Of a stretch of DNA of 24,142 nucleotides, positions 150 through 21,822 are shown piece after piece; within the stretch, counting starts at the first letter, position 1; each line of letters begins with the position of its first letter. A program made the translations under genes and the position numbers. The notes beneath the pieces were generated by a model. The model was not told the DNA's origin and made no database searches. It saw only the letters and a list, made by a program, of their open reading frames with translations. Source of the DNA: a virus (lineage: Duplodnaviria > Caudoviricetes); IMG/VR virus record IMGVR_UViG_3300017764_000105, positions 1-24,142 of that record; one strand, given 5' to 3'.

Positions 150-1073
150 TTACGACAAGGCTAGCCTCTTTTTCATTAATGTAGAGGTAGTAAGTTTTAT
201 TGCGTTGTGAAGCAATTTTGTAAAGTTTTTAAAACCAAGTTCAGATGGATCTTTATCACCCATTTCTATAAGATAGACTTTTTTCCCATAAGACATAAAA
301 GTTTCAGCATGGTTAAAAGCATCCTTTAAAGCATCTTCATCTAAAGCAAGATATATTTTTTTTACGTTAGATTTAATAATTTTTTTCATTAAAGTTGTAG
401 ATAATTTTTTTCCAAATAAAGGAATCGCATTACGTTTTATAGCCATAGCATCGAACGCACCTTCACATAAAATCACGGGTAAATCCCAGTTTATATACAT
501 TTCAAACCCAATTATGTCCTTGGTACTGGAAGCCAACTTATGCTTAATATACGCGTTTTTATCAAACGAACGACCTACATAATAATTTAAGAAACCATCT
601 TTATCATATGAAGGTATTACAACCATATTTCTTAAAGGACCTTCCTCACAATAATGTAAATCATATTTTACTACGTCTTGTTGAGTAATTCCTCTTTGGT
701 TTAAATAATGTAATGCATGTCTTGATAAAACTGCAGAACTAGACATTATGGGGGTTACTCCTTGGGGAAATTGTAAAGTATTAGTGTCAACTTTTTGTTT
801 AATTTGTTTTTTAAAATTGTATTGTTGATCTATTTCTTTTAAAGCTCCAAATGCAGCTCCAGGTGCGTTGGATTTTTTAAGTAATTGAAAGGCTCTATGA
901 CCTTTATAACCACAAACCCAACATTGAAATTTTTGTGATAATAAATTAAACGTTAATTTTTTCTTATGGTGGTTACAAGAAGGACAAGTAAAAACAGCTT
1001 CGTCTCCTCCACGAGCAGATTTACTTCTACCTAAAATTGATTCTAATAATTTTTTTAATAGATCTTCTTTCAT
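150..1073 (-). CDS. dnaG: Phage DNA primase (DnaG type: Zn-binding domain plus TOPRIM)
   Basis: N-terminal CPSC..HH...CWVC zinc motif. Catalytic-core features YLNQRGI, VVIPSYD and YYVGRS. TOPRIM motifs ILCEGAFDA, PLFG, YLALDEDA (DxD) and KDPSE. Confidence 0.92.
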   Translation of the reverse strand: MKEDLLKKLLESILGRSKSARGGDEAVFTCPSCNHHKKKLTFNLLSQKFQCWVCGYKGHRAFQLLKKSNAPGAAFGALKEIDQQYNFKKQIKQKVDTNTLQFPQGVTPIMSSSAVLSRHALHYLNQRGITQQDVVKYDLHYCEEGPLRNMVVIPSYDKDGFLNYYVGRSFDKNAYIKHKLASSTKDIIGFEMYINWDLPVILCEGAFDAMAIKRNAIPLFGKKLSTTLMKKIIKSNVKKIYLALDEDALKDAFNHAETFMSYGKKVYLIEMGDKDPSELGFKNFTKLLHNAIKLTTSTLMKKRLALS

Positions 1074-1699
1074 TCCCAGGTAACATCTTCAAATATAGGA
1101 GATTTCATTTCTGTTTCTATTTTTTCTATTTTTTTAAAAAAATTAGGTAAATCCTCATCACTTATTTTTTTATATTCTATAAACATTTTAACTCTTATAT
1201 CTCCCCTTTGAACCCTAAATAAGTCTTCTTCATTTGTTTTTTCTTTTTTATCACCAAAATAAATATAAGTAAAGCCCCCATATTCTTTAAGTTTAAAATT
1301 TATGTCATTAAAAATAAATCCATTTTGAATAAGTTCATTATATAAAATTGTTTGACCTTGAGAAAGGGGTTTATATACTATACAAGTATATTGAGGGTAT
1401 TGTTTGAAAAAATTAAAAGAAATATCTCTTAATTTTGCTAAAAATTCTAATGTTTCTGTTCTGTTGTTTTTTAGTTTATTATTAAATCTTATAGATTCAT
1501 TATTATTCATTTCAAAATTTCCCCATATATAATTTTTATTTTCTGCTCTTATAGGTCCAAAATTTCCTATTACTCCTATATCATCATAAAGTCCTTCAGT
1601 TTCTAAAAATGAAATTCCCAATTTAGTACTATCATGTAAATCAAATTCACACGCAAATCTTCTTTTATTTTCTATTCTACTTATTTCTTTTATTTCCAT
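1070..1699 (-). CDS. Hypothetical protein (209 aa)
   Basis: Long ORF in very AT-rich DNA, overlapping both neighbours (ATGA overlap with the primase start; 10-nt overlap with the GIY-YIG stop). No confident family. Confidence 0.7.
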   Translation of the reverse strand: MEIKEISRIENKRRFACEFDLHDSTKLGISFLETEGLYDDIGVIGNFGPIRAENKNYIWGNFEMNNNESIRFNNKLKNNRTETLEFLAKLRDISFNFFKQYPQYTCIVYKPLSQGQTILYNELIQNGFIFNDINFKLKEYGGFTYIYFGDKKEKTNEEDLFRVQRGDIRVKMFIEYKKISDEDLPNFFKKIEKIETEMKSPIFEDVTWE

Positions 1700-2124
1700 G
1701 TTTTAAAATCTTTATCATAAAACTTACCTAATATATTATCATTAAGAAATTTAGGTGTTTCTAAAACTTCTAATATAAATTGATATTTACATTCTAAATA
1801 TGTAAGTTGTTTTTTATTAAAAGCCACTTGTAAGATGTTTCTTTCTAGATCTTCTTTATTTGCGTCTTTTATAAAACTATGAGAACCATAGTAAGTTTTC
1901 CAATCGCTTTCCTTTTGTACCTGTTTGTACATGGGAGGACGGCCTTTTCCTTCCCAAAGTGCTTTTTCTTTTTTACCTAATTTTTTCTTTAAATTATAAA
2001 TAAAAGATTTTTTACCAATGTACTTCTTTCCTGTTGGGACATGAGTTGTTTGGTAAATAAAACCGAATGCTCCTTCTGGGAGGTCAGTTATTTCATTAAT
2101 TTGTTTTCCTATATAATACCACAT
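1690..2124 (-). CDS. GIY-YIG family nuclease (Seg-like catalytic domain only)
   Basis: GFIYQTTHVPTGKKYIGKK (GIY-x-YIG), WKTYYGS, conserved Glu in LTYLE and Asn in FLNDNI. No C-terminal DNA-binding extension. Confidence 0.85.
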   Translation of the reverse strand: MWYYIGKQINEITDLPEGAFGFIYQTTHVPTGKKYIGKKSFIYNLKKKLGKKEKALWEGKGRPPMYKQVQKESDWKTYYGSHSFIKDANKEDLERNILQVAFNKKQLTYLECKYQFILEVLETPKFLNDNILGKFYDKDFKTWK

Positions 2125-2148
2125 AACAATTAATGTATGAAAGAGATT

Positions 2149-4752
2149 TTAGGTATCCCAGCGAAGTATGAAAGTTGTGTCAGTTTCATCTGACATTCTA
2201 ACAGGTTGTCCTAATTTACCAACCACTAATAATTCATAATTATCATCATATAAACCAATAGTAGTTACGTAAGGATTCCAAATAGAACCTGTAGCAAAAT
2301 TTGCTATATTTTCGTGCTCTTCATTTGTTATACATCTAGCCGAAACATTATTTGTAAAATTATATTCTTGTTCGTCTGCAGTACATTGGTATTCATTTTC
2401 AACTAAAGGTAGAGTGTTTTTAAAAGAAATAGATGAAGTTATATTATGATGTTTAAAATGATGGAAATAATGGGGATTTGTAATAGTAATTAATCCCATA
2501 CTATAAAATATATTACCTACTATAGGAGTACCTATATATTTTGATTCATAATAATTTTCTTCTATTTCACTATTTTTTAAAGCTCTAGGATAAATTGCAA
2601 TGTTTTGTAAGGATCCTGTGTAGAAGTTTTGTATTCCTCCTTGACATCCTATATACATGTTAGATTTATTTTGAGTTATTCCTAATTCTTTACCACATAT
2701 AGATCCCGATTTAATAGATTCTAATTCTGATACTTGTAATACTCCATCCACATATATACTCATTACTGATTGTGAATATTGGCATACTACATTATAAATA
2801 GAACCCGTTCCCACTGTTAAAGGTCCTGTTGAAACAGTAACTGGATCTAATCCATTACTTCTTCTAAAACATAAAGAATTATATGTTGAATTATTTTGTG
2901 TTACTGTTCTGCTTTGACCAGATGCTATTAAACTTGATACACTTGTGCAATTATTGGATATACTATCTATAAACTGTTGTGCTGTTAAATAATCTACACC
3001 ATGATAATTTTTAACTGGATCTGAATTCCACCCGGGGATTGTTGATGTTGATGGGATACTAGGATGACTAGAATTATCTAAAAATCCTAATAAAATATCT
3101 CCTGTAGTTGGTGGTGTTCCTATATTAGTGGGGTATAAAGTAGAAACAGGTCCATTTAAAACCCCATTATTATCCGTGAATGTATTTCCGGGTATTCCTA
3201 AAGTAGATAATGGTGGTGTTGTAGAAGTATCTGAGGTGAAATAATCAAATAGATCTTGATTTGATATTGATTGTAATGTAATTGATCCTGGAGTACTATT
3301 AGTATACTGACCTAAAGTATTATTCCAAACCCACCCAGAAGGTGCTTGTGTTTCTCTATTAAATTGATTTCCATATCCTGATAACCATGGACTAGGAGGT
3401 GAAGCAATAGCTACTGCTATTCCCCCCGTACAAGATATACTTGATGTTGTAATAGGAGAAGTTGCTACTTGTTGGGTAGTACATCCTTCATTAGATCCTG
3501 ATAAAAATATTTCAAAAGGATATTGAGGTTCAGATTCTATTTCTACTTCTTGATTTGCTCCTGATACATTTAAATTTAATGCTTTTATTGCTTTAGCTTC
3601 TAAAGAAGATGCATTTACTGTTTTTGTTTTGCTTTTTCCTATTATATGAAATTCAGAACTTGAAACATTTCCATCACATTTAAAAGGAGCAGGTTTTAAA
3701 TTAAATGTAATAGTAAAATCATCTCCTGGATTAAAATCAAACTTTTCATTATGAGGAGATCTTAAATAACTTCCTCCTTTTTTTCCATGACCTGCTACTA
3801 TTCCTGGGTCGTTTCTTTTTAATACATTTAAAGAATGAGGAGTTTGACAATGAAAATCCATAAATGTATGATGAGTATAATCTGTTTGGTTTCCTAATAT
3901 TATTTCACTAATTGAGTGAGAATGAGGGATAAGTCTATAATTAGGAAAATAGGGATATTTAGTAAATCTAATATTATTATAATCTACTAATCCATGATAG
4001 TAACTATCTTCATATACATCTTCCATACTGTATGCTGGTACTTTACATCCTGCACTATCAAATTCTGGTAAAGTAGAAAATAATCCTAAACCTTTAGGAT
4101 CATAATGTATTGAATGTGTAGTATAATCTGGTATATGCTCACCATGTTTTGTTTTAGTTAAATCTAAAAATCTATATGAATTTATAGGGTTAAGATAAAA
4201 AATTCTATCATCTTTGAAATATTCTGGATAGTTATAAGTTAAAGAATTAGGAAAAGATTCTGTAGTAAATGCTTGTGATCCTGATCCTAAATTTGTTTCT
4301 AAATGAATTATATTACCTAAACCATCATCTATAAATCTACCTGTTAGTTGTATTTTATTTCCTAAACTAGCTGTTGCTCTAAAATCTTTTACTTTAGTTA
4401 TTGTTTCTAATTGTAGAGATTTTTGTTTAATTTGAACTCCATACATGTTTTGGGGTATAGAATAAACATAAACTTCTTCATCTAATTGTCTATGTTGTTT
4501 TAAATAATGAACATTACCAAATTTATTAGCTACATCTACGGGATAATCCCCATAATATAAATGTTCTAGTTGTTTATGAGCACAAGTTGAAGCTCCATAT
4601 TCTTCTTTTGCACTTTGGCTCCATGAAGCTGTTACAAAATAAGTGTGTTTTATAGAGTCAGATTTACCTTTTAAGGTATAAGTGTACTGTTTATGTGCAT
4701 TAAAGGGTACAACCGCTATATCTGATGCCTTTAATTTCTTGTATACAAACAT
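2149..4752 (-). CDS. Virion/baseplate-associated structural protein with a LamG/concanavalin-like domain interrupted by an insert, and a tail-collar-like C-terminus
   Basis: LamG-like motifs FDFNPGDDFTITFNLKP, YNVVCQY..MSIYVDGVLQ, MYIG...FYTGSLQNIAIYPRAL..EI. C-terminal YVTTIGLYDDNYELLVVGKLGQP is paralogous to the 357 aa neighbour. Confidence 0.75.
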   Translation of the reverse strand: MFVYKKLKASDIAVVPFNAHKQYTYTLKGKSDSIKHTYFVTASWSQSAKEEYGASTCAHKQLEHLYYGDYPVDVANKFGNVHYLKQHRQLDEEVYVYSIPQNMYGVQIKQKSLQLETITKVKDFRATASLGNKIQLTGRFIDDGLGNIIHLETNLGSGSQAFTTESFPNSLTYNYPEYFKDDRIFYLNPINSYRFLDLTKTKHGEHIPDYTTHSIHYDPKGLGLFSTLPEFDSAGCKVPAYSMEDVYEDSYYHGLVDYNNIRFTKYPYFPNYRLIPHSHSISEIILGNQTDYTHHTFMDFHCQTPHSLNVLKRNDPGIVAGHGKKGGSYLRSPHNEKFDFNPGDDFTITFNLKPAPFKCDGNVSSSEFHIIGKSKTKTVNASSLEAKAIKALNLNVSGANQEVEIESEPQYPFEIFLSGSNEGCTTQQVATSPITTSSISCTGGIAVAIASPPSPWLSGYGNQFNRETQAPSGWVWNNTLGQYTNSTPGSITLQSISNQDLFDYFTSDTSTTPPLSTLGIPGNTFTDNNGVLNGPVSTLYPTNIGTPPTTGDILLGFLDNSSHPSIPSTSTIPGWNSDPVKNYHGVDYLTAQQFIDSISNNCTSVSSLIASGQSRTVTQNNSTYNSLCFRRSNGLDPVTVSTGPLTVGTGSIYNVVCQYSQSVMSIYVDGVLQVSELESIKSGSICGKELGITQNKSNMYIGCQGGIQNFYTGSLQNIAIYPRALKNSEIEENYYESKYIGTPIVGNIFYSMGLITITNPHYFHHFKHHNITSSISFKNTLPLVENEYQCTADEQEYNFTNNVSARCITNEEHENIANFATGSIWNPYVTTIGLYDDNYELLVVGKLGQPVRMSDETDTTFILRWDT

Positions 4753-9846: not shown

Positions 9847-12800
9847 TTAACTACTATAACTACTTCCTCCACTTCCCCCACTAGTTGTTGTTGTTGATGA
9901 TTTTTGAACGCTAACAGTTTGAGTACCTTTTATTGATACACCAAGTCCTGATCCTTTTGAGGGATTAACTGGATTTATTCCTACCGTAGGATTTATACCT
10001 GGGTTTGTAGGATCATTACCAAAATTAAATTGTGGTGGTTTAGATACATAATAGTATTCTTTACTAACTATACAATCTACATAATTACCATATAATGGAT
10101 CAAAATTGTCATATAAAGTAATATAAGGATTACATTCATCTGAAGCATATTTGCTTTGACTCATGTATAAATTATCACTTGCTGTTAGAGCTCCCATCCA
10201 AGGGAAATAATTTTCATTTACTTTATCTGATATATTAATACATGCTTCGTAGTGTTTAACTTCTCCTTCTAAATCTAAATAAGGTAAAAGATGAGCTTCT
10301 TTTTCTAATCTTTCAAATGTTGGTATTTGTCTTGCAAATTTTTGTCTTTCTAAATAATGTGGTTCAATTAATAAACCAGTTTTTAAATTAGCTTTTGCTG
10401 GAACAAATTGTTCTACCATTTTAAATAAAGTATGATCTATATATTGAATTAATTTTATATAATCAAAGAAATTTTGTCTATAGCTGTTTAAATATTTTTT
10501 AAAGTATTTTAATTTTAATTCTTCTAAATCTGGATATTCTGCTAAACTTTGGTGTGTTGGATCTCCTATATAATCATCCATTCTAAATGCTCCTAAAGTA
10601 TAAACAATATCTTCATTTATTTCTGCTTGTGGTGAGAAAAATACTCCTAAATCATTATAATCTAAAGGTTGTCTGTCTAATGTAGATGTTTCTGTTTTTA
10701 TATCAAAAGATAATATACTTCTATCTATAGATCCCGAATCTATTCTGACTTTTTCACTTGTAGTAGAAATACCTACAGTGTCTGGTGTTAAATGTCTATG
10801 AGTTTCATATACTTCATTAAATGATTGACTTGTAATAGAACTAGATATACTTGAAGATTCATATAAACTAAATAATGGATGTGGATTGAAATTTTGAATT
10901 ATTCCTAACCCATTATTATTATAAGAAGCAGAATCTACTTTATTATTACTTCCTAAAGGTAATCTTAAATGAACATTTTCCCAAGATGAACTAACAGTAT
11001 TACCTGCATATTGGAAAGGATCTAAAGCATGTTTAGTAAGAGTATCATGTGTTAAGAAATCTTTAACATGGTATTTAATTTCTTGTAAAGATCCTGAATA
11101 TGTAAAACTATTTACACTACCACTTGTATTACTATTAGTAGGAACCCCACAAAAATATGCTGTTGATGCTGGAAGTGTATTATTAGCTAAATTATAAGCG
11201 GTATCTCCAAAAGATGCTGCTCTTTCATATTCACTAAAAGTAGCTGAAGCTGTTAGATGGGTAACATGACCTAAGAAATTAGATTGATACGCTCCAAAAT
11301 ATACTTCACTATTACTTCCTGATTCTCCTTTTGTTCCTATAAATATATTCCAAAAGGCTCCATTATAAACAGGGAATATATCTGTACTTCCTACTACTGA
11401 TCCATTTTTATATAAATCTAATGAACCAAAGTTTCTAAAATCATCCGAAGAAGAAACATCACTACCTGTGTATGGTCTTAATATTAAGTGAGGAGTTGTT
11501 TGTGGTTGTGATTCATTATATAAACTAAATAAATGTGAAGCTGTTGGTATTGTTATAACAGGATCACAACATGCTTCTAAAGATGAATATTCTGGTTTGT
11601 CTAATCTGTGGGGTTTAATTCTAAATTCTACCATTTTAGCAGAACTTGAAGGAATTATATCGAAAGTACTAGCAGAAACAAAATTAATAATTGTTTCATA
11701 AGTATCTGCTGAACATTCACATCTACTACTAGATACTTCTCCTGCTACTAAACATCCTACTTCTATAGACGATGATTCAGGACAACAAATGCATGATTCA
11801 AATTCTATGTCTCCATCTAATGATTCTCCTCCCGTTGTTTCAGGAATACAAACACAAGCTCCTCCGTCTATTTGTCCATATAATGGTATATTTCCTGCTG
11901 TACTTTGTGTTTCTTCCGTTACTATAGGATCTCCAGGTATATCTTCACAATTAGCTGCTTGGTAATTAACTATAATATTAGCGCTATAAGTTATTTCTAA
12001 AGTAGAATTAAAATAATTTAATATATCTGTTATGTCATCTTGATAAGTAAATATATCTACTTGTTGTTGTGTTGATCCTGTTGTTGTTTCATTACAAGGA
12101 CAAGTTTCTACTTTTGTTTCAATTGAATATCTAACTATTGTTCCCTCATATCTTGGATGGTTACTTTCTAAAGTATTAATTGTATTTAATACTTGGGCTA
12201 AAGTCATTGTATTATCAAACTGATTTGCATCGCCTTCAGCATTACAAGCTGCATTTAAATGACCTAGGAAACCATCCCAATCTTGAGCTGTTGGTGATGC
12301 TTGATTAGGAGTTCCATTTTGGGGTTGAGTCATTATAGTTCCAAAATACCCATTTTGAGCAAACTGGGTTGTTCCTGTGTCTAAAAAAGATTGACAAACT
12401 AATTGGAATTCTTTAATATATCTTTGTGCATTTGTAGCACATGAATGTCCTGCAATAGGTGATGTTGTATCTTCAAAGAAATAATTTGCTGCTGTCTGAC
12501 TAGGAGCATTATCAATTAACCATTGAGTATGAGAAGCAACTGTTCCTGCAGGAGAGGTAGTAGATTCAAATATTTCATAAAACATTGATTGTGTTTCATT
12601 TGTATTGCCTGTTATATTTGACCACGTTCCTGAATTACAAGGTTCAGTATAATTTTGAACTGTTGTACCTGGGATAGTTGTGAAACTTAAACTATTTAAA
12701 GTATCAATAAATGTATGCCAATTAGTATAAGTACCTCCTGCACTTGAGAAGGTTAAAGAAGGTAATGATGTGAAAGTAAAATCAGTTACAAAACAATATA

Positions 12801-15800
12801 CTCCTCCTCCTGCTGGTAAATTTTCACCTGTACAATTATTATAAGGTGCTAATGTTTCATCTAAAGTATCATTTGTAAAATAATATCCATTTAAGTTTTG
12901 TCCATGTCCATTATCTATTAACCAATTTAATTGTTGTGTTGCGTTTCCTATTACATTTGATCCAGCAGCACTATTATTAAATATTTGAGATTGTGCGTCA
13001 AATATATTAATAGGTGTACCAGGAGTTGTTGTGGTTATTACTCCAGGTGTGCTTAATGTTGCTACTGAGCTTGATAATTGATTCCATGTAGTATATGTAC
13101 TTATGCTAGCTCCATTATTATTTAAAAAATCAATACCTGTTAATCCATCTTCTTGGATTTTTTGATTTAAAAAAGTACTCCAACTTCCATAAAAAGTAGA
13201 ATCGGATGAATATTGATTAGTTGTTGATGAAGGATCTATTAAAGCATTTTGATAAAATCCTTCAACTGTATATAAACCATATTGGTTTATTTCTGTTGAA
13301 GTAGAACCTGTACATAATATATTTACTTCTACTTCTGTTATTGTTTCTGTTATGCATAAATCTGAAGTAGATACAAATTCATCAAGATCTACAGCTAATT
13401 GTGTTGAAGACATATTTGGGAAAGATACATTAATTCCCCAACCATATTTATCTAATTCCCCAAATCCTTGATCAAAATAAGGGTTTGTAGTTTTTAATGC
13501 GTTGTAAGTAACTGTCCCACCCCATGGAGCTACAAGTCCTGCATAAATACCACCATTAAGTGTATCTACAGTTCCAGGAACACCAAAACTCATAATTGTA
13601 GATGGGGGATTAGCTAATCTTCCATCATTATTATCTCCACTAGTTATTGATGCTAGTGCTGATAATATTGTTTGTGAATATAAAGAAGTAAAATTCTTAG
13701 GGGCACTTTCATTAGGAGTTGGATACATGAAACATGCTACATTTCCTGTTGTATAATTGTTGTAAAGAGTTGTATATTCAGTCCAATCATCTTGGAAAGA
13801 ATCAAAACTTGTACTTTTAGGTTCATCATCACCAAATAGAGGATCCAAATAATCAATAGTATTAACATTAGGATTAGTAGTTAAATTTCCTATAGGTCCC
13901 TCTGTCCAATCATTAACATATCTATTATCAGATTCATCTATAAAACAAATAGCTAAAACGTCTCCTGTTGGAGGTCCTAATGTTGATAAAGTATTAGAAG
14001 ATGCCCATGTACCACTATATACATTTACAGTTGGATCTGCCTCCATTAAAGCTAATGTTGGTTCGATTTTATAATGGGCATTACTAAGATTTCCACCACC
14101 ATTATAATACTTAGTAGTATCTCCAAAACCTTCTAACATTCCAGTTCCCCATTTTAACCATCTTTCTCTTGTTGCAAATATATGATAAACAGTTTTATTA
14201 TATCCTTGGTTTTGTTGTAAATCTAAAACCCAATCATTTACAGCATTAAATGCTGTTACTTTAGCAGCATTCCCCATTGAAGTATTATCATAAAACACAT
14301 ATAAATCTGCATTAACAGAACAGTCTTCTTCTTCCGTTGTTATTTCTTGGAATGATTGATCTACTAATTGAAATTTTAAAGTATTTAAATTTGATGCTGC
14401 AAAACCATTTGCAGAATCAGAAATAAATTGCATGTATTCATTATAATTTGAAAATACTCCTTGTGGTTGAGGGATGGTAAATTCACCTGTAGTTGAATCA
14501 GGAAAATATTGAATTCCCGTAGTTGTTGATATTAAAGGATCTGTAAAGTTTAAAATTCCATTAGTTACTTCTACTATTATAGAATTAGAAGTATAATCTA
14601 TTGAAGTTACAGTTAAAGTACACCCAGAATTATTTGATTGTATAAGAGAATCTCCTACAATAAAAGGTTCATTACCTTGGTCAAAACTAGATCCAGTTAT
14701 AGATATAATTGTATTATTATTAAGTACTAAATTATTAGGACAAACATCTGCACATATACATTCATCTACTGCTATAGGACCTTCTATTTGAGATTCTAAT
14801 CTTGTATCTCCTAAAGTTAAAGCATATCCTAAATTTTGACCTTCTGTTATATAATCTGTGTATTTTGAAAAAGAAGTTGAACTAATTGAAGGATTCATAA
14901 AAAACTCATCAACAGTAAATAACATGTTTCCATTTTCATCTAAACATATATTTGGATCAGTATATTGTGTTACTGAATAATCTGCACATAAAGTTTCACT
15001 TAAAACTTTTCCTAAAGCATTTTCAAATTCAATACCAGTAAATGCATTTTCTTGGACTGCTTCAGAAGTTACAACCCACCCATAATTTTGTAAACCACCA
15101 TACCCATATTGTGGATCATATCCTGTAGGAGGTGAGAAACTTGTTTCATTTTGCCAACTTGAAATAGCATAAGGGTTTGTGTTAGACCCACCACTACTAT
15201 CTAATGCATTAAGATATATAGCATTATTAGCAGGTGGAGTAGTTGATAAGTACTCATGGCCTGTTTCTAACATACCTGGGTTAGCTGCACTACCCGTTAG
15301 TATAGAACTCCATACATGTAAAGGAAAAGCTAATTGTGTAGTTTGAAAAACAGTTGTGCCATCTACTCCTAAATATCTATTAGATGAGGGATCTGAAAGG
15401 CTTAAACCTTCAGGAGCAGAAGGATACATAAAATTAATTAAATCTCCTTGATTTTCATATTCATTTGCTGTTCTGTCTATGTTTTCAAAATAGGTTTTAA
15501 TAAATAATTCATAATCTACTCTCCAATCTTTTTGACCTTGACTAGTACCATCTTGTATTTTAGCTTGTGTTAAACCTACATTACCAAATGTTGGATTTGT
15601 TGAAGTAGATGATTGGTGGTATTGTCTTTTTCCACTATTAGATGTTTCTGAAGATTCATCATAAAAATTAAATACTAAAGCTTTATCTGTTGCATTTTGT
15701 AATGATGGGGCAGGTCCTCTCCAAGTCCATGATGTTCCCCCAAATGATCCTGCTGAGTTAGGTACTTCATCATCATACATTCCATTACCATCATTAATAA

Positions 15801-18800
15801 CTGATTTTACAGGAACTACTTGTCCCTGAATTACTATTGTTCCAGTTTCAACAAATTGATATATTTCTTTAGATCTAGTATTACCTGTTCCATTTTTGAC
15901 AAGTTTATGCCATATATGACTCCCCCCAAAGGCTTTTTCACCTCCTGTAATGTTACTTTGATTAGAATTCCAATAACCTGATACACCTGCTTGTTTTGAT
16001 ATATTATCATTATCACTATGAATAGTAGTAATAGAACCAAAACCACCATTTTGTAAGTGATCTCCAATATTTGTAAAAGGTAATCTAGCACAATCTAACC
16101 ATCTTTCATAAGAATTAACCATATGATAAACAGTACCTGTAAAATTAGCTCCTTGTTCTGCTACCCAATTTTCCACAGTTTCTACTACATTTTGGAATAC
16201 TGTTGCTGTCATTGAAGTACCATCATAAAAACAGTATATTGTTGCATCTAAAGGGCAAGTTTCTTGGAATGTTTGGGTTAAACTATCTGGGTCAACAGGA
16301 AATTTAAATCCATCTACTGCTATATTTTGTATATTATTTGTTTGTTCAGAATAATATTCTAAGAAATCAACCATACCTGTATTTCCGGATCCAGGAGTAG
16401 GAAAACTACCATCAGATGTTAATGGATTTGTTATTAAAGTTTTATGTTGGCAAGATCCTTCAAAAGATCCTGTAATTAATGCTGCTGTTAAATTTGAAAA
16501 ATTAGTAGGAGGTGTTTCAATACCATGCCCATCTACATTTAATTGATTTACAAATGTTTGATAATTAGTATATAAAACAGTGTCTAAAGGTAATATAGAT
16601 TGGTCTTTTCTAAAACCAACAACTCTTCTAATAGGTAAACCATTAGATCCTATACATTGATCTTCTACAAAAGTTCCCCAAGGTAAAGGTTCGTCTGATT
16701 CAAAATAGTAATCATCTATATTTTGACCATAAAAACCATTATCAAAATCAGTAAAATAATCTACAAAATCTGCTGATGTTTCAAATGATCCATTTCCTTC
16801 TGGATTAATAACCATTCCATCACAAGAGCCTGTTGTAGTTGTTATTTCTGTTTTTTCACAAAGTCCAGTACACTCATTAAATAAATAACCTTCTGGACAT
16901 TCATTTGTTTGTGTATTAAATTCTCCTCCCCCACATGTTGTGCTTGTAATAGAATTAATAGTAATTGTTACGTCAGCTTGGTCAAATTGTTCTGTTCCTA
17001 GAGTGCTATAAAAATGCACTCCTCCTTGATCTACTACACCTGGTGTATGTAAGTCAGTTGCTGTAAAAGTAACATTAAATGTATCATTGTTGCAATTAGT
17101 TCCTCCATTAAACATCTCCTCAATATAACAGCTACCTAGAGTAGTAGTAGTTCCTCCCCAATTGTTATTTGGATTTCTATCAAAAAGTAAAAGTCCTTTA
17201 CTAGAATTTGAACCATCATTACTAATTGTATAATTTATAGTATATTCACATCCAATAACTAAATTATGAAAAGAATTTATCCATCTTCTCCAATTAGGAT
17301 AAGCAGGATCGTTAGTGTTTGTACTAGTTGGATAATTATTTTTAATGGTCATTTGGTTTGGACCATCTACTTGCCAATAATCTGTGTCTCCACTACCTAT
17401 AGTAAAATCAACATAAGGTGTAAGTTGATTAGGACCTGGATCACTAGTAAATATGATATTGTTTTTATAAGCGTCTTCTAAATCAGTGTATGTTATGCCA
17501 TTTAATGTAATACCATTATTATCTATGTTTTGAAAATCAGCATCTGAATTAAAAGTACCTATTGGGAAAGGTCCTACTATATCACATCCAAAGGATGCTA
17601 CATTTTCATCATTTTTTCCTTCTAAAACTATTGTGTTATCTCCTGCTATTAAATTTACTTTATAAACCCACCAATAATTAAAATTACTAGTTGAACTTGT
17701 ATCTTTTTCAATTAACATTTCACCATTTACAGCAAATCTTATTCTATTATCTCCTGCTAGACCTATTAAATATTCTCCATCAGCAGGTACATTTATACAT
17801 TTTGAAAATCCTATCCATTGGTTTGTAGGATTCATTAAAGTGTTATTTCCTAACCATGGATTAGTTCCATCCCAAACTCCTATATTATTTAACCTTCCAT
17901 CATTTTGACTAGTACCCCCAAAATAAGTGTTTGACTGATCAATATTATATGTAGTAGTTGTTGTAGTATCTGAATAAAATTTTACTCCAAACTTTCCATA
18001 ATTAGAATTTTGTGCTCCTTGTCCTAAAGGTATACTAGAATTAACTGTTGGTAATTGAGTTAAAACATTTGATGTAGTAATAGTACCTGTTGTAAATTCA
18101 TTACACCCACAAGATGAAGATGCAGGAAAATGAGTTATAATATCTGATGCTTTTAATTCAGACCATTTTGTATCTACATTTATTCCTGGTATGTTTGAAT
18201 TTATTATACCATCAGCATTTAACGCGTTAATAAACGTGGTATAATTGGTATAACACGCGTCACTTGTGCTTGACACATCACTACAATTAGAACTACAATA
18301 ATTTAAAATTTCGCTTGGATCTAAATAACCTTGTTTATTTGATGCCTGAATAGTTGTACTAGTTACAAAAATTTGGTTATTAGGATGTGAAAAAACATAA
18401 TCACTATTAGTAGGACCATAGTTGTAGGCATTACCATCGGAAGTTACGTAAGCACTTCCATCATAAATGTGTGTGCCTGCTGCATAAGGAATTGCTTGGG
18501 CTAAATAATTATCATAAGTAGAATCTCCAGTAGATCCTTGAACTATATAATCTGTAAATTGTGTAGTAGTAACACTAAAAGATAAATTAGCACCATCTAC
18601 ATAGAAGTCTAAAACTGCACTACAAGAATTATTAGATGTTGTTACTATTTCTCCTCCTGTTGAGTCTGTACCCCCTATAAGCCCACTTGCTGTTATAGAC
18701 ATAAATGCGGCATCTCCCCCCATATTAAGGGCAGAACCTTGTATAGGATTGTTAGTATTAGATCCTGTTACTACTGTTGTTATTTCTAATGCATATCCAT

Positions 18801-21800
18801 CTCTTTGAGGGACTGAGTCTAAATTTATAGCATTAAAATTGGGGTTGGCATTTATTGCATTTGTAAGATCTTGACCTATTGAATTTACTGAACCTCCTCC
18901 TGTTAAAGTAAAAGTATGAGCAGTACCATCTGCTGATGTTAATATTACTGTTTCTCCATTATATAAACTATTATTTCCCCCAACTGTATTAGGAATAGTT
19001 ATTGTACCTACTGCTGTTGTTCCTGGAGAAACTGTTGTTGGAGTTACTATTGTTTTTATATTTACACAATCATCTGCTTTAAAACATTCTATAACAAATA
19101 AACCATAATCATTTATTCCTTTACATTGAAATTCCCCTAAATATAAAGGAATAGCTGACGGAGTTAGTGATTCAAAACTATATAAAGAGATATCTATATC
19201 AGTATATCCATTTGTTACGTCTGTAACAAAATCCATAAATTCTGCTTCATCCTGAAATAATCCATTATTTATTAGATTACCTGATCCATCTGCTGCTATT
19301 CCGTTTTCTATTAATGTTTTACTTGAACATGTATTAATACCAGGTATAACTGTTGTAATTGATGTTGAATTGTTTGTTCCTCCTCCTGCATTAAAATCTA
19401 CTTTTGTTAAAAATTCAACTTCAGGAAATTGTTGTGGGTTACCACAAGCTGGAGTTAATGTATCTTCAAATAATGTACCTTTTATTTCTGTATTACCATC
19501 TATACCTTGTAGATGTTGGGTTATCATTATTTCAATATCTAAATTGTATTTTTCATGAGCAGGATCATATAAATCTTCTCTTACAAAAACAGAAGCTGAA
19601 AATAATGTATGTGCGTCTATAGCTCCTGCTAGACTTTGAGCTGTTTCTAAACCACTTTCTCCATGTAATATAAAATCATAATTAGAAGTAAAAGTATGAA
19701 CAGATAAATCTGTGGCTGTTAATTCTACTGTTTTAGGAAAAGGTGCATTAAATAAATCTTTTACAGCTCCTATAGAAAATATTATTTTACCCTCTGATCT
19801 ATTTGGTTTACTTTCTACTGTTCCTGTGAATAAAGAAGAAGAAGATGCCCATGGTGCTTTTATGAAATATCCTTCTAAATCTGAACTTCCCGCTAGGGCT
19901 CTTGAGAATTTTTCATAATTAAATGTTTTATAAGTAGTTTCATCTGTTGTAGGTCCTCCATATTCTTTTATATTTAATATAGTTTCAGGAACCCCATAAC
20001 AATTCATAAGAGCTTTTATTCCTCTTTCTGTTCCTTTTGTTTTTAAAAGATAAGGTAAATTATGATATAATCTTTTCCAAACTTCTTTTGTAATATCTCC
20101 TTTAGGCATTGAACTACCTCCATTATCACATGTTACTAAAGAAGAAGTTATCATAGTTTGTCCTTCAGGGGCTTGATATGTCCCAAAAGAACCAGCCTTA
20201 TTTGCAGAAGTTCCTATTATATATTCAAATAATTCTTCATTTTCAAATTGATCAAAAGCTTTTATTCCTAAACTGCTTAAAGCAGTAAATACTAAATCTT
20301 TTGAAATACCTTTTTTAAGAGAACTATTAGCATTTCTAATTTCTGTAATGTGGTCTATATATAACCATATTTGGTCAAAATAATGACCAACCATATTTGT
20401 AAAGGTTACATAATTTTCATTTTCTTCTCTTTCGGCAATATGCTCAGGTATTGTTCTAATTAAACTATGTTTATTAGCTCCATCAAATCTAGAAGCAGAT
20501 AATATTTGTCCTCCATAATCTATATTTAATTCATTTGTACTTCCAAACCATTCAACTGCTTCTGAGGAAGTAGTAGGTCTTAAATTATAAGGTTTAAGAA
20601 ATACTTCACAGTCAGATAATCCTACTTGAAGCCAATAAGAATCTGGTTGTAAAGTAGAACCTGTTACTTGTAGAGTTCCTATACCAAAATCAGGTACTTT
20701 AGGCCATGCATATGGATGAAATTCATAATATAAAAATCTTTCATAATTATCAAAATTACTTTTTATTTTTGATATTTTAGATTCAATTAAATTTTTATTA
20801 CCTGTAACTGTAGCAGAACCTGATATACTACCTTGGATTGTATTTATTTCATCTATTTGTCTTTGGTATAATTCTAATAGTTCTAACTTATATTTAAAGT
20901 TTTTTAATCTTTCTTCAGCACTACCAAAATGTGTAAAATTTTCAAAATGGAATCCTGTTTCTAAAGATCCTGTAGATGTATTTGTATAATCTATAGATAA
21001 TTCTATACTCCCACTTAAATGATTTAATACTGTGTATAAAGAAGATGAATTTGTATTAGAGACAAAGTCATTAAAATTTTTATATTTAGAAGGTATAGAA
21101 TCATTTAAACGTGTATCTATTCTAAAATTAGGTCCTTTTATATCAATACCAAACTCTGGTAAATCAGGTTCCCCTAAATCTATAGAAAATTCTATTGGTT
21201 CTACTATATCTTCTACTATTCTAAACTTTTCACCTACTTCTAAGTCTAAAGGTAAAGGTTCATATAATTTAATACCTATTTCTCCCTCTTGGTATATAAT
21301 ATTTGTTGCTAAAACATTATTATTTTCTCCAAAATTTAAAGTAAAATCTCTAAAAAAATTAGTTGATGCTAATCCTCTTGTAAAATCACCAATATGTTTT
21401 TCTATATTAGCATTACCTATTTGGTCTGATATAAATTCACATTTTAATTCTAATTTAGAAGGAGATAGTTCTTTTATTATAAATACTTTATTTAAAGTAT
21501 CTATTATTTTTGCTCTTTGTAATCTATAAACAACTATATATTGACCTGTTGTGTAACCTAAGTCTCCTACTTTTTTATAAGGATCTACAAATATTGTATT
21601 AGTTAAAGTAGAAGCATCGCTTCCATCATCTTCTATATTTTCAGGAACAGTATATTCTAAATAATTTTCTATAGAAGTTATATGACGACCCCCCATATCA
21701 AACATATGGAATTCAACATAATCATTTTCTCTTCCAAATTTTCTACCTACATTAAGAGGATTTAAAGATTCTGCATCTATTTGAGATATTTTTGGAATTA

Positions 21801-21822
21801 TATTTTTATTATCTATACTCAT
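9847..21822 (-). CDS. Giant baseplate wedge-like protein (3991 aa) carrying a ~2,700 aa nested multi-domain adhesin-like insertion
   Basis: RLYHNLPYLLKTKGTERGIKALMNCYGVP...IKEYGG resembles the KGT motif of P2 gpI / T4 gp7-type wedge proteins. C-terminal LamG-like motifs (VEFRIKP, FWNIFI, YSGSLQEIKY) and QFVPAKANLKTGLLIEPH. The centre contains Cys-bracketed repeats plus VWA-like, PA14-like and CBM-like domains. Confidence 0.75.
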   Translation of the reverse strand: MSIDNKNIIPKISQIDAESLNPLNVGRKFGRENDYVEFHMFDMGGRHITSIENYLEYTVPENIEDDGSDASTLTNTIFVDPYKKVGDLGYTTGQYIVVYRLQRAKIIDTLNKVFIIKELSPSKLELKCEFISDQIGNANIEKHIGDFTRGLASTNFFRDFTLNFGENNNVLATNIIYQEGEIGIKLYEPLPLDLEVGEKFRIVEDIVEPIEFSIDLGEPDLPEFGIDIKGPNFRIDTRLNDSIPSKYKNFNDFVSNTNSSSLYTVLNHLSGSIELSIDYTNTSTGSLETGFHFENFTHFGSAEERLKNFKYKLELLELYQRQIDEINTIQGSISGSATVTGNKNLIESKISKIKSNFDNYERFLYYEFHPYAWPKVPDFGIGTLQVTGSTLQPDSYWLQVGLSDCEVFLKPYNLRPTTSSEAVEWFGSTNELNIDYGGQILSASRFDGANKHSLIRTIPEHIAEREENENYVTFTNMVGHYFDQIWLYIDHITEIRNANSSLKKGISKDLVFTALSSLGIKAFDQFENEELFEYIIGTSANKAGSFGTYQAPEGQTMITSSLVTCDNGGSSMPKGDITKEVWKRLYHNLPYLLKTKGTERGIKALMNCYGVPETILNIKEYGGPTTDETTYKTFNYEKFSRALAGSSDLEGYFIKAPWASSSSLFTGTVESKPNRSEGKIIFSIGAVKDLFNAPFPKTVELTATDLSVHTFTSNYDFILHGESGLETAQSLAGAIDAHTLFSASVFVREDLYDPAHEKYNLDIEIMITQHLQGIDGNTEIKGTLFEDTLTPACGNPQQFPEVEFLTKVDFNAGGGTNNSTSITTVIPGINTCSSKTLIENGIAADGSGNLINNGLFQDEAEFMDFVTDVTNGYTDIDISLYSFESLTPSAIPLYLGEFQCKGINDYGLFVIECFKADDCVNIKTIVTPTTVSPGTTAVGTITIPNTVGGNNSLYNGETVILTSADGTAHTFTLTGGGSVNSIGQDLTNAINANPNFNAINLDSVPQRDGYALEITTVVTGSNTNNPIQGSALNMGGDAAFMSITASGLIGGTDSTGGEIVTTSNNSCSAVLDFYVDGANLSFSVTTTQFTDYIVQGSTGDSTYDNYLAQAIPYAAGTHIYDGSAYVTSDGNAYNYGPTNSDYVFSHPNNQIFVTSTTIQASNKQGYLDPSEILNYCSSNCSDVSSTSDACYTNYTTFINALNADGIINSNIPGINVDTKWSELKASDIITHFPASSSCGCNEFTTGTITTSNVLTQLPTVNSSIPLGQGAQNSNYGKFGVKFYSDTTTTTTYNIDQSNTYFGGTSQNDGRLNNIGVWDGTNPWLGNNTLMNPTNQWIGFSKCINVPADGEYLIGLAGDNRIRFAVNGEMLIEKDTSSTSNFNYWWVYKVNLIAGDNTIVLEGKNDENVASFGCDIVGPFPIGTFNSDADFQNIDNNGITLNGITYTDLEDAYKNNIIFTSDPGPNQLTPYVDFTIGSGDTDYWQVDGPNQMTIKNNYPTSTNTNDPAYPNWRRWINSFHNLVIGCEYTINYTISNDGSNSSKGLLLFDRNPNNNWGGTTTTLGSCYIEEMFNGGTNCNNDTFNVTFTATDLHTPGVVDQGGVHFYSTLGTEQFDQADVTITINSITSTTCGGGEFNTQTNECPEGYLFNECTGLCEKTEITTTTGSCDGMVINPEGNGSFETSADFVDYFTDFDNGFYGQNIDDYYFESDEPLPWGTFVEDQCIGSNGLPIRRVVGFRKDQSILPLDTVLYTNYQTFVNQLNVDGHGIETPPTNFSNLTAALITGSFEGSCQHKTLITNPLTSDGSFPTPGSGNTGMVDFLEYYSEQTNNIQNIAVDGFKFPVDPDSLTQTFQETCPLDATIYCFYDGTSMTATVFQNVVETVENWVAEQGANFTGTVYHMVNSYERWLDCARLPFTNIGDHLQNGGFGSITTIHSDNDNISKQAGVSGYWNSNQSNITGGEKAFGGSHIWHKLVKNGTGNTRSKEIYQFVETGTIVIQGQVVPVKSVINDGNGMYDDEVPNSAGSFGGTSWTWRGPAPSLQNATDKALVFNFYDESSETSNSGKRQYHQSSTSTNPTFGNVGLTQAKIQDGTSQGQKDWRVDYELFIKTYFENIDRTANEYENQGDLINFMYPSAPEGLSLSDPSSNRYLGVDGTTVFQTTQLAFPLHVWSSILTGSAANPGMLETGHEYLSTTPPANNAIYLNALDSSGGSNTNPYAISSWQNETSFSPPTGYDPQYGYGGLQNYGWVVTSEAVQENAFTGIEFENALGKVLSETLCADYSVTQYTDPNICLDENGNMLFTVDEFFMNPSISSTSFSKYTDYITEGQNLGYALTLGDTRLESQIEGPIAVDECICADVCPNNLVLNNNTIISITGSSFDQGNEPFIVGDSLIQSNNSGCTLTVTSIDYTSNSIIVEVTNGILNFTDPLISTTTGIQYFPDSTTGEFTIPQPQGVFSNYNEYMQFISDSANGFAASNLNTLKFQLVDQSFQEITTEEEDCSVNADLYVFYDNTSMGNAAKVTAFNAVNDWVLDLQQNQGYNKTVYHIFATRERWLKWGTGMLEGFGDTTKYYNGGGNLSNAHYKIEPTLALMEADPTVNVYSGTWASSNTLSTLGPPTGDVLAICFIDESDNRYVNDWTEGPIGNLTTNPNVNTIDYLDPLFGDDEPKSTSFDSFQDDWTEYTTLYNNYTTGNVACFMYPTPNESAPKNFTSLYSQTILSALASITSGDNNDGRLANPPSTIMSFGVPGTVDTLNGGIYAGLVAPWGGTVTYNALKTTNPYFDQGFGELDKYGWGINVSFPNMSSTQLAVDLDEFVSTSDLCITETITEVEVNILCTGSTSTEINQYGLYTVEGFYQNALIDPSSTTNQYSSDSTFYGSWSTFLNQKIQEDGLTGIDFLNNNGASISTYTTWNQLSSSVATLSTPGVITTTTPGTPINIFDAQSQIFNNSAAGSNVIGNATQQLNWLIDNGHGQNLNGYYFTNDTLDETLAPYNNCTGENLPAGGGVYCFVTDFTFTSLPSLTFSSAGGTYTNWHTFIDTLNSLSFTTIPGTTVQNYTEPCNSGTWSNITGNTNETQSMFYEIFESTTSPAGTVASHTQWLIDNAPSQTAANYFFEDTTSPIAGHSCATNAQRYIKEFQLVCQSFLDTGTTQFAQNGYFGTIMTQPQNGTPNQASPTAQDWDGFLGHLNAACNAEGDANQFDNTMTLAQVLNTINTLESNHPRYEGTIVRYSIETKVETCPCNETTTGSTQQQVDIFTYQDDITDILNYFNSTLEITYSANIIVNYQAANCEDIPGDPIVTEETQSTAGNIPLYGQIDGGACVCIPETTGGESLDGDIEFESCICCPESSSIEVGCLVAGEVSSSRCECSADTYETIINFVSASTFDIIPSSSAKMVEFRIKPHRLDKPEYSSLEACCDPVITIPTASHLFSLYNESQPQTTPHLILRPYTGSDVSSSDDFRNFGSLDLYKNGSVVGSTDIFPVYNGAFWNIFIGTKGESGSNSEVYFGAYQSNFLGHVTHLTASATFSEYERAASFGDTAYNLANNTLPASTAYFCGVPTNSNTSGSVNSFTYSGSLQEIKYHVKDFLTHDTLTKHALDPFQYAGNTVSSSWENVHLRLPLGSNNKVDSASYNNNGLGIIQNFNPHPLFSLYESSSISSSITSQSFNEVYETHRHLTPDTVGISTTSEKVRIDSGSIDRSILSFDIKTETSTLDRQPLDYNDLGVFFSPQAEINEDIVYTLGAFRMDDYIGDPTHQSLAEYPDLEELKLKYFKKYLNSYRQNFFDYIKLIQYIDHTLFKMVEQFVPAKANLKTGLLIEPHYLERQKFARQIPTFERLEKEAHLLPYLDLEGEVKHYEACINISDKVNENYFPWMGALTASDNLYMSQSKYASDECNPYITLYDNFDPLYGNYVDCIVSKEYYYVSKPPQFNFGNDPTNPGINPTVGINPVNPSKGSGLGVSIKGTQTVSVQKSSTTTTSGGSGGSSYSS
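11713..19329 (-). repeat. Six diverged, nested protein-level repeats (hub modules R1-R6) within the 3991 aa ORF
   Basis: Recurring ordered motifs: opening C; (D/E)F.DY.(T/S)D..NG or QWLIDN; Y.F; mid C; V..F; YTNY.TF.N.L; closing G.(I/V)...CxC. Copies open at about 19329, 16824, 16452, 14742, 13020 and 12639. Confidence 0.75.

Follow-up and report, generated by a model that had tools for sequence, protein, structure and literature searches.

A nested four-cysteine domain that probably serves as a branching joint for binding domains in a likely phage baseplate protein

What fills the middle of a phage protein whose orthologues are mostly far shorter? The window considered here, meaning the whole stretch of DNA that was analysed, is a virus record of 24,142 bases (IMGVR_UViG_3300017764_000105) in which all long open reading frames (ORFs) lie on the minus strand, and its largest gene, which we call the carrier gene, encodes a protein with about 2,740 amino acids (aa) inserted in one short loop. 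The initial annotation of this locus had described a new "hub" domain at 11713..19329, a span that runs exactly from C832 to C3370 of the 3,991-aa ORF. We find that the insertion holds six copies (R1 to R6) of this domain, each of about 130 aa and built around four cysteines. We consider it probable that the hub is a disulfide-stapled branching joint, from which a likely baseplate protein would display binding domains (one PA14 domain, two VWA-like domains, and others that are unnamed).

The hub stretch is an insertion and not part of the protein core. A query with the C-terminal part of the protein gave 79 viral loci, in 75 of which the orthologous ORF could be picked by sequence patterns. 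Among the ORFs not cut at the start, 60 of 61 are 919-1,575 aa long and the remaining one 426 aa; their cysteines number 0-5, and none of the 61 has a hub. Hubs were found among these loci only in L006-L008 and L011/L012. The loop that receives the insertion measures 7-32 aa in 13 short ORFs and 2,697-2,918 aa in 3 long ones (16/61 ORFs, in which the patterns recognised both flanking strands), and ten long orthologues were found among proteins. An assembly artefact or a chance resemblance was ruled out: a near-identical ORF is present in L001 and P0006 (14 members), and shuffled sequences score lower. The domain that flanks the insertion gives a LamG match of E 0.064 in 1 of 20 orthologues, which faintly suggests a LamG-like domain. 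At one locus (L040:9788-11065), the 426-aa ORF may reflect a gene that is split or frameshifted.

Homology among the copies was assessed by Smith-Waterman z scores against 300 shuffles, with inserts spliced out (copy limits in aa: R1 832-918 + 1191-1237 + 3358-3370; R2 1667-1790 + 3333-3346; R3 1791-1855 + 2280-2357; R4 2361-2370 + 2452-2500 + 2824-2935 + 3296-3325; R5 2936-3061 + 3244-3295; R6 3062-3243). The scores were 21.2 for R1-R2, 10.4 for R1-R4, 10.3 for R2-R3, 7.5 for R1-R3, 6.6 for R2-R5, 6.1 for R2-R4, and 3.5 for R5-R6; R6 compared with R1-R4 was not significant (z -1.4 to 1.2), and it is tied in solely through R5. A profile built from 15 crAss-like copies alone (described below) placed R1, R2, R3, R5, and R6 above all 200 shuffles. 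The cysteine landmarks originally listed are all in place, namely the mid-domain motifs QCKG (C900), QCIG (C1723), ICLD (C2293), LCTG (C2837), and SCAT (C3128), the closing CxC pairs at 2355/2357 (R3), 3241/3243 (R6), 3323/3325 (R4), 3344/3346 (R2), and 3368/3370 (R1), and the single-Cys closing of R5 (AANCED, 3289-3294), a copy whose opening Cys is missing in 14/14 orthologous proteins. R5 has in addition a mid Cys that had not been listed (NCTG, C2997).

Five insertion sites also lie where they had been claimed. Site A follows the opening strand (R4, aa 2371-2451); site B, the K-F strand (aa 1856-2279 in R3 and 2501-2823 in R4); site C, the V..F strand (aa 919-1190 in R1); site D, the YTN(Y/W) helix (R6 within R5); and site E, the last helix, with inserts in R1, R2, and R4. 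The closing strands run in the order R6, R5, R4, R2, R1 along the chain, and this reversed order points to a likely nesting of R1 > R2 > (R3, R4 > R5 > R6), five levels deep. The nesting of R6 is directly apparent in P0015 and G004, from which R6 is cleanly absent together with its CxC; the last three closing strands (R4, R2, R1) are presumably assigned correctly by nesting order. When R2 (aa 1665-1790) and its assigned closing strand (3326-3356) were modelled as a complex, the score was 0.03, which counts neither for nor against the assignment.

The claim of a portable domain is borne out by orthologues that gain, lose, and swap whole copies and their cargo. In L003 and P0011, R2 has a further complete hub inserted behind its opening strand. 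The occupant of an exchangeable slot, Y, is an unnamed beta-rich domain in the window protein, P0006, P0008, P0010, and P0014, and a hub (of four sequence types) in seven others (L002, L003, P0009, P0011, P0013, P0015, and G004). The second VWA-like domain is cleanly absent from P0008 along with both flanking cysteines; in P0015, R3 bears the second type of VWA-like domain, and the insert of R4 is unrelated; and the content of R1 site C differs in P0013, P0015, and G004. Two further observations concern the depth of this variation: P0008 carries a long extra insert within its first VWA-like domain (aa about 1985-2170), a further nesting level, and P0015 (aa about 2540-3060) and L011 (aa about 1900-2600) have a large unrelated insert at R4 site B, which apparently contains a very degenerate hub.

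Portability extends to other protein families and to another phage order. A profile search of the hub against viral proteins, which had been suggested at the outset, found relatives in two crAss-like protein families; an exhaustive search with a 16-sequence hub profile against 1.84 billion representatives gave 11 hits. The second hub family comprises 13 proteins of 1,600-2,400 aa with several hubs each, as well as small W-x-C...G-x-G-x-Y...C repeats and C-terminal LamG domains, and one member lies in a 123-kb genome (G006) that encodes Crass_capsid (PF23898, E 8e-32), portal, and terminase. Hubs also sit within hubs in this family, as in P0021 (site B 126-255, site C 811-997, site E 339-460 and 470-620). 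A third hub protein, P0039 (L100:7337-17077, minus strand; 3,247 aa, 174 Cys), lies in the structural module of G006; it shares its VWA-like domain with the window protein and contains a single clear hub (36 bits). As a whole it matched nothing in Pfam, PHROG, or NCBIfam. Among 50,697 annotated phage records, no match was found to the R2 hub or to a second-family protein, and no isolate of this clade is known. Searches that detect close relatives only found none for P0037 in genome contigs, which leaves room for Bacteroidota cellular proteins, and none for one compact hub in metagenome contigs.

We note in passing several features of these relatives. P0039, which has a relative in L104, contains several possible degenerate hubs and many repeats of the GC(T/M)DPxAxNY type. 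The gene just upstream of the crAss-like hub-protein gene (L092:7141-9996, L091:2604-4994) encodes a product with a signal-peptide-like start and more than 10 GC(T/M)DxxAxN(Y/F) Cys repeats; this product matched no family in the libraries used. Four short proteins among the 11 hits (P0022-P0025) are built on a small W-x-C...C...G-x-Y...C repeat with hubs placed in its loop; as P0022 and P0024 are similar to the X hub of L003, a fourth protein family is possible.

As a guide to the fold we took a compact copy found in a relative (L011:2636-3031, 132 aa); its AlphaFold2 model, built on a 16-sequence alignment, reached a pLDDT of 92.9 and a pTM of 0.84. The model has strands at 6-12, 37-41, 58-69, and 122-129 and helices at 15-28, 87-98, and 109-117, that is, strands at both termini, three long helices, and four main strands, and the five insertion sites lie between these elements. 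The hub is thereby predicted to be a small alpha/beta module. A Foldseek comparison, another of the checks originally suggested, matched no known fold at E <=0.001, either in the PDB (best E 0.62) or in BFVD (best E 0.30, TM 0.43); VIA-align against 48,161 chains gave a best Z of 2.5, where unmatched models typically reach 7-8; and ESM Atlas gave no usable match. Antichymotrypsin matches (E 0.28 or worse) and death-domain matches (Z 2.5 or less) were taken as noise. Neither split nor compact copies had a significant match in Pfam, PHROG, or NCBIfam, profile searches that leave a remote family possible. The hub may be a new fold, for which such negatives fall short of proof; no paper on a domain of this kind was found in the literature searched, with subscription journals and bioRxiv supplements lying outside that search.

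We turn to the pairing of the cysteines. In a 130-position model of 164 segments, the aligned residue at the four Cys columns is Cys in 79/79, 150/154, 79/79, and 77/77 cases, a near-invariance that leaves these columns no covariation to score. Two lineages keep only two cysteines: R5, which has lost the opening Cys and closes with A-x-C in 14/14 proteins, and some of the hubs in slot Y. The Y hub of P0009 has all four and ends GPCNC-SPGT; orthologous Y hubs without the opening Cys end PVTC-RPGT (L002), HVIC-TQGT (L003), and SPVTC-RPGT (P0012), and in the alignment they keep the second Cys of CxC, the first having been lost along with the opening Cys. A register test of 12 two-Cys closings against 78 four-Cys closings, in which ten R5 rows count as one event, favored retention of the second Cys in 9 cases and of the first in 2, with 1 tie. 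Because the Cys lost with the opening one is the first of CxC, the opening Cys quite likely pairs with that first Cys, and the mid Cys with the second. In the initial annotation, the second Cys of CxC was taken as the partner of the opening Cys, so that the termini are stapled. The stapling would hold under either pairing, given that disulfides form; the opening-to-second detail is probably wrong, as two independent two-Cys variants lose the first Cys.

Two alternatives to this assignment deserve consideration. One retains the same scaffold with the earlier pairing (opening to second, mid to first); it draws on the two dissenting register scores (P0015, G004) and the tie, and on the fact that the model has isolated beta-bridges at V50 and L131; were these antiparallel, the mid Cys would come to lie next to the first Cys. 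We regard it as unlikely, with 9/12 scores opposed, Ala at the first position in 14/14 R5 closings, and the orthologous Y-hub alignment to the contrary. The other is that four nearly invariant cysteines bind a metal (Zn), so that the domain folds in the reducing cytoplasm, which is where phage proteins fold. We judge metal binding quite improbable: the two-Cys variants persist with Ala or Val, not His or Asp, at the lost position; there are no CxxC pairs; the Cys pair flanking a cargo domain is lost together (P0008); and the same proteins bear other Cys repeats of extracellular type. The pattern (C, C, CxC, with stable Ala/Val two-Cys variants) also departs from that of a Cys4 zinc domain. Disulfides are presumably present in the hub, and are favored over metal because of the Ala or Val at lost positions and the paired loss of cargo-flanking cysteines; phage Milano (PMC10811340) offers an earlier example of a baseplate rich in disulfides.

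Among the cargo domains, PA14 (PF07691) is matched by aa 1240-1470 at E 8.9e-6, with 26 bits against a cut-off of 24 (21.1 bits when the whole protein is used); it is cargo, and the hub itself matches neither PA14 nor Laminin G (PF13385), the latter lying C-terminal to the hubs in the crAss-like family as a neighbor. The two VWA-like inserts are homologous and Cys-flanked, with an invariant Y-D-x-T-S-M and a later D-E in 7/7 aligned sequences, which may be a variant metal site. Their VWA label finds some favor in weak Foldseek matches of the pLDDT-37 model of R3 with its insert, which were enriched in integrin I/VWA chains (many chains, E 0.5-2.8, 44-54 residues, rmsd 2.1-3.8). Against the label stand the D-x-T-S-M found in place of the canonical DxSxS MIDAS motif and the lack of any Pfam or PDB sequence match, and it is to be read as weakly supported. 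Profile searches in Pfam and PHROG gave no family name for the other inserts.

The carrier protein is likely a baseplate wedge protein (gp7/BW3 position), because in relatives the gene follows those for gp25 and Baseplate_J. A match to gp109 of Flavobacterium phage vB_FspM_immuto_2-6A (YP_010114574; 31% identity over 94%, E 3e-80) covers the first 660 residues, and five further phage records match this N-terminal part. In G004, GPW_gp25 (E 3.5e-12) and Baseplate_J (E 1.3e-4) are encoded four and three genes upstream of the orthologue, respectively, and Immutovirus has the same order, with the gp109 gene behind baseplate assembly and wedge genes; in both, the gene comes after the gp25 (BW1) and gpJ/gp6 (BW2) genes, as expected for BW3 or T4 gp7. 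Immutovirus gp109 (1,265 aa) and Mel-JY01 WWT39511 (1,336 aa) share the orthologous N- and C-terminal cores and the position behind baseplate assembly/wedge genes, but are annotated as hypothetical and have neither hub nor nested insert. The bacterial host of the phage is presumably to be read from Immutovirus, our sole guide. The gene module of the Flavobacterium Immutovirus recurs in a phage recorded on Microcystis (L005, PP395634).

How might such a chain be built and used? In the model we propose, the chain would leave the baseplate protein through one loop, run out through the N-terminal parts of R1, R2, R4, and R5 to R6, and then return, with closing strands completing the hubs in the order R6, R5, R4, R2, R1. 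The ends of each hub would adjoin and likely be locked by two disulfides after release from the cell, and each cargo domain would be stapled by additional Cys pairs. With entry and exit side by side, any of the five loops could take up an entire hub or cargo domain and leave the receiving fold intact. The outcome would be one polypeptide shaped like a tree, with tips that differ from phage to phage. Its location on the virion and its role in adhesion are presumed; its most likely use would be the first, reversible attachment to host surface polymers. A broader proposal, to which we incline somewhat less than to its opposite, is that hub-plus-cargo cassettes, including VWA-like ones, move between Immutovirus-like baseplate proteins and crAss-like virion proteins, with the hub as a recursive, five-port, disulfide-locked new fold that builds tree-shaped single-chain adhesins.

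Several observations weigh against the branching-joint interpretation. The near-invariance of the cysteines is biased, in that copies without a Cys may not align at that column, and the pairing depends on two evolutionary events, with 2/12 register scores in favor of the other arrangement. The insert has an odd number of cysteines in 6/10 proteins (even in 4/10), which implies that some are free or bonded between chains. R4 was unrecognised by the crAss-only profile, its score being reached by 25/200 shuffles; the model of R3 with its insert is of low confidence (pLDDT 37) and uninformative on reassembly around an insert; and a 20-sequence profile of the carrier protein, run against PDB sequences and Pfam, picked up no known baseplate subunit. 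Finally, most hubs of the crAss-like family are without cargo, which would fit the hub itself as the binder.

This last point leads to a different reading, in which the hub itself binds the ligand, as a small adhesin or lectin present in many copies for avidity, and nesting is a by-product of its adjacent termini. The cargo-free tip copies (R6, X, Y, and most crAss-like ones) are indeed highly divergent, a hub replaces the beta-rich domain in slot Y, and aromatic residues are conserved; these aromatics, however, sit in core-like helices and strands, each of R1-R5 is interrupted and bears cargo, and no lectin fold was matched. We think this reading improbable, and it is in any case compatible with a scaffold role. 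Closing strands might instead complete the hubs of neighboring subunits, so that domain swapping yields an oligomeric net around the baseplate. Baseplate wedges are oligomeric, the odd Cys counts would suit such a net, and inter-chain disulfide nets are reported for phage Milano (PMC10811340). We nevertheless consider swapping very unlikely, as compact copies are complete in one stretch and the strictly reversed order of closing strands fits a chain that folds back on itself.

The branching-joint interpretation can be set beside known systems. Baseplate proteins with inserted carbohydrate-binding modules (the "evolved" Dit/BppA type) carry one or two modules in a loop; they share with the window protein the placement of binding domains in a loop of a conserved baseplate protein, whereas the window protein would have a 2,740-aa tree on a dedicated, self-nesting joint. 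In RrgA/GBS104/SpaC pilus tips and in integrin beta (PSI>hybrid>I), a VWA-type domain is borne on nested, covalently locked fold-back domains, and the window protein would resemble these in its VWA-like domains on nested fold-back domains, the fold-back being read from sequence order and the split-hub model having a pLDDT of 37. RrgA-type stalks are all-beta, Ig-like, and held by isopeptide bonds (integrin being eukaryotic), whereas the hub is predicted to be alpha/beta, with cysteines and five ports, and nests in its own copies. Its modelled helices and strands do not correspond to the all-beta Ig-like CnaA/CnaB architecture, and a stalk of the RrgA type is disfavored because the hub is predicted to be alpha/beta and not Ig-like. 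The accessible part of the Milano report (PMC10811340) describes extensive disulfide cross-linking of baseplate, spike, and fiber proteins in a myovirus of Agrobacterium; the bonds are largely between subunits, and that part shows no repeat domain or nesting. We would place the window protein among baseplate proteins that carry binding domains as inserts, a type of system already known; the domain itself is new, mobile, and self-nesting.

Phage attachment proteins are known to vary by end-to-end domain swaps or by one or two loop insertions. A domain that accepts inserts in five loops, among them its own copies down to a fifth level, would offer another means of constructing a multivalent adhesin, and two unrelated phage groups have it in common. 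If the broader proposal is true, this would be a combinatorial route to diversity in host attachment, one not known to be described for tail fibers. With their 130 aa, the compact copies offer an easy structural target for a possible new fold, and the two-Cys variants give direct access to the question of disulfides. Protein engineers would take an interest in a naturally occurring scaffold with several ports for insertion. The ecological weight is limited, because the family is rare (the 11 hits of the first profile). Coordinates of all features are collected in Table 1.

Table 1. Features of the carrier gene and its insertion (window positions; residues of the encoded protein).
Feature	Window positions	Strand	Residues (aa)	Remarks
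Carrier (host) gene	9847..21822	-	3,991 aa in total	64 Cys; Immutovirus gp109 orthologue
N-terminal core, common to short orthologues	19867..21822	-	1-652	gp109 match
Whole insertion	11641..19818	-	669-3394	between two strands of a presumed LamG-like domain
First inserted beta-rich domain	19453..19818	-	669-790	related to aa about 935-1052; direct DNA repeat D1
Hub R1 part a	19069..19329	-	832-918	opening C832, mid C900
Insert at site C of R1	18253..19068	-	919-1190	flanked by C919, C1190; two unnamed domains
Hub R1 part b	18112..18252	-	1191-1237	helices 2 and 3
PA14 domain region inside site E of R1	17413..18105	-	1240-1470	PF07691
Exchangeable slot Y	16933..17415	-	about 1470-1630	here an unnamed beta-rich domain, without Pfam or PHROG match
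Hub R2 main part	16453..16824	-	1667-1790	C1667, C1723
Hub R3 part a	16258..16452	-	1791-1855	C1791
VWA-like insert 1, site B of R3	14986..16257	-	1856-2279	Cys-flanked; YDGTSM motif
Hub R3 part b	14752..14985	-	2280-2357	C2293; CIC 2355/2357
Hub R4 opening strand	14713..14742	-	2361-2370	C2361
Insert at site A of R4, unnamed	14470..14712	-	2371-2451	duplicated in P0013, P0015, G004
Hub R4 part b	14323..14469	-	2452-2500	
VWA-like insert 2, site B of R4	13354..14322	-	2501-2823	Cys-flanked
Hub R4 part c	13018..13353	-	2824-2935	mid C2837
Hub R5 part a	12640..13017	-	2936-3061	without opening Cys; mid C2997
Hub R6, complete, innermost, site D of R5	12094..12639	-	3062-3243	
Hub R5 part b	11938..12093	-	3244-3295	closing A-N-C3292
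Closing strand assigned to R4	11848..11937	-	3296-3325	CVC; assigned from nesting
Closing strand assigned to R2	11785..11847	-	3326-3346	CIC; assigned from nesting
Closing strand assigned to R1	11713..11751	-	3358-3370	CEC; assigned from nesting
Rest of LamG-like domain and conserved C-terminal core	9850..11640	-	3395-3991	

The other ORFs of the window encode a primase, a GIY-YIG protein, an 867-aa LamG protein, and three conserved unknowns. In the 867-aa protein (2149-4752, minus strand), the LamG domain (E 4e-8) is split by a Ser/Thr/Gly-rich, Cys-flanked segment that is faintly similar to the hub motif and was not scored by the hub profiles. Within the insertion, two related beta-rich domains (18625-19818, minus strand; aa 669-790 and about 935-1052) correspond to the DNA repeat D1; in P0015 and G004, R1 site C lacks the second of them, and PA14 is preceded by two copies instead. 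Between slot Y and R2 (16825-16935, minus strand) lies a small invariant Cys cluster (CPEGY..N.CT..C), which we take to be EGF-like.

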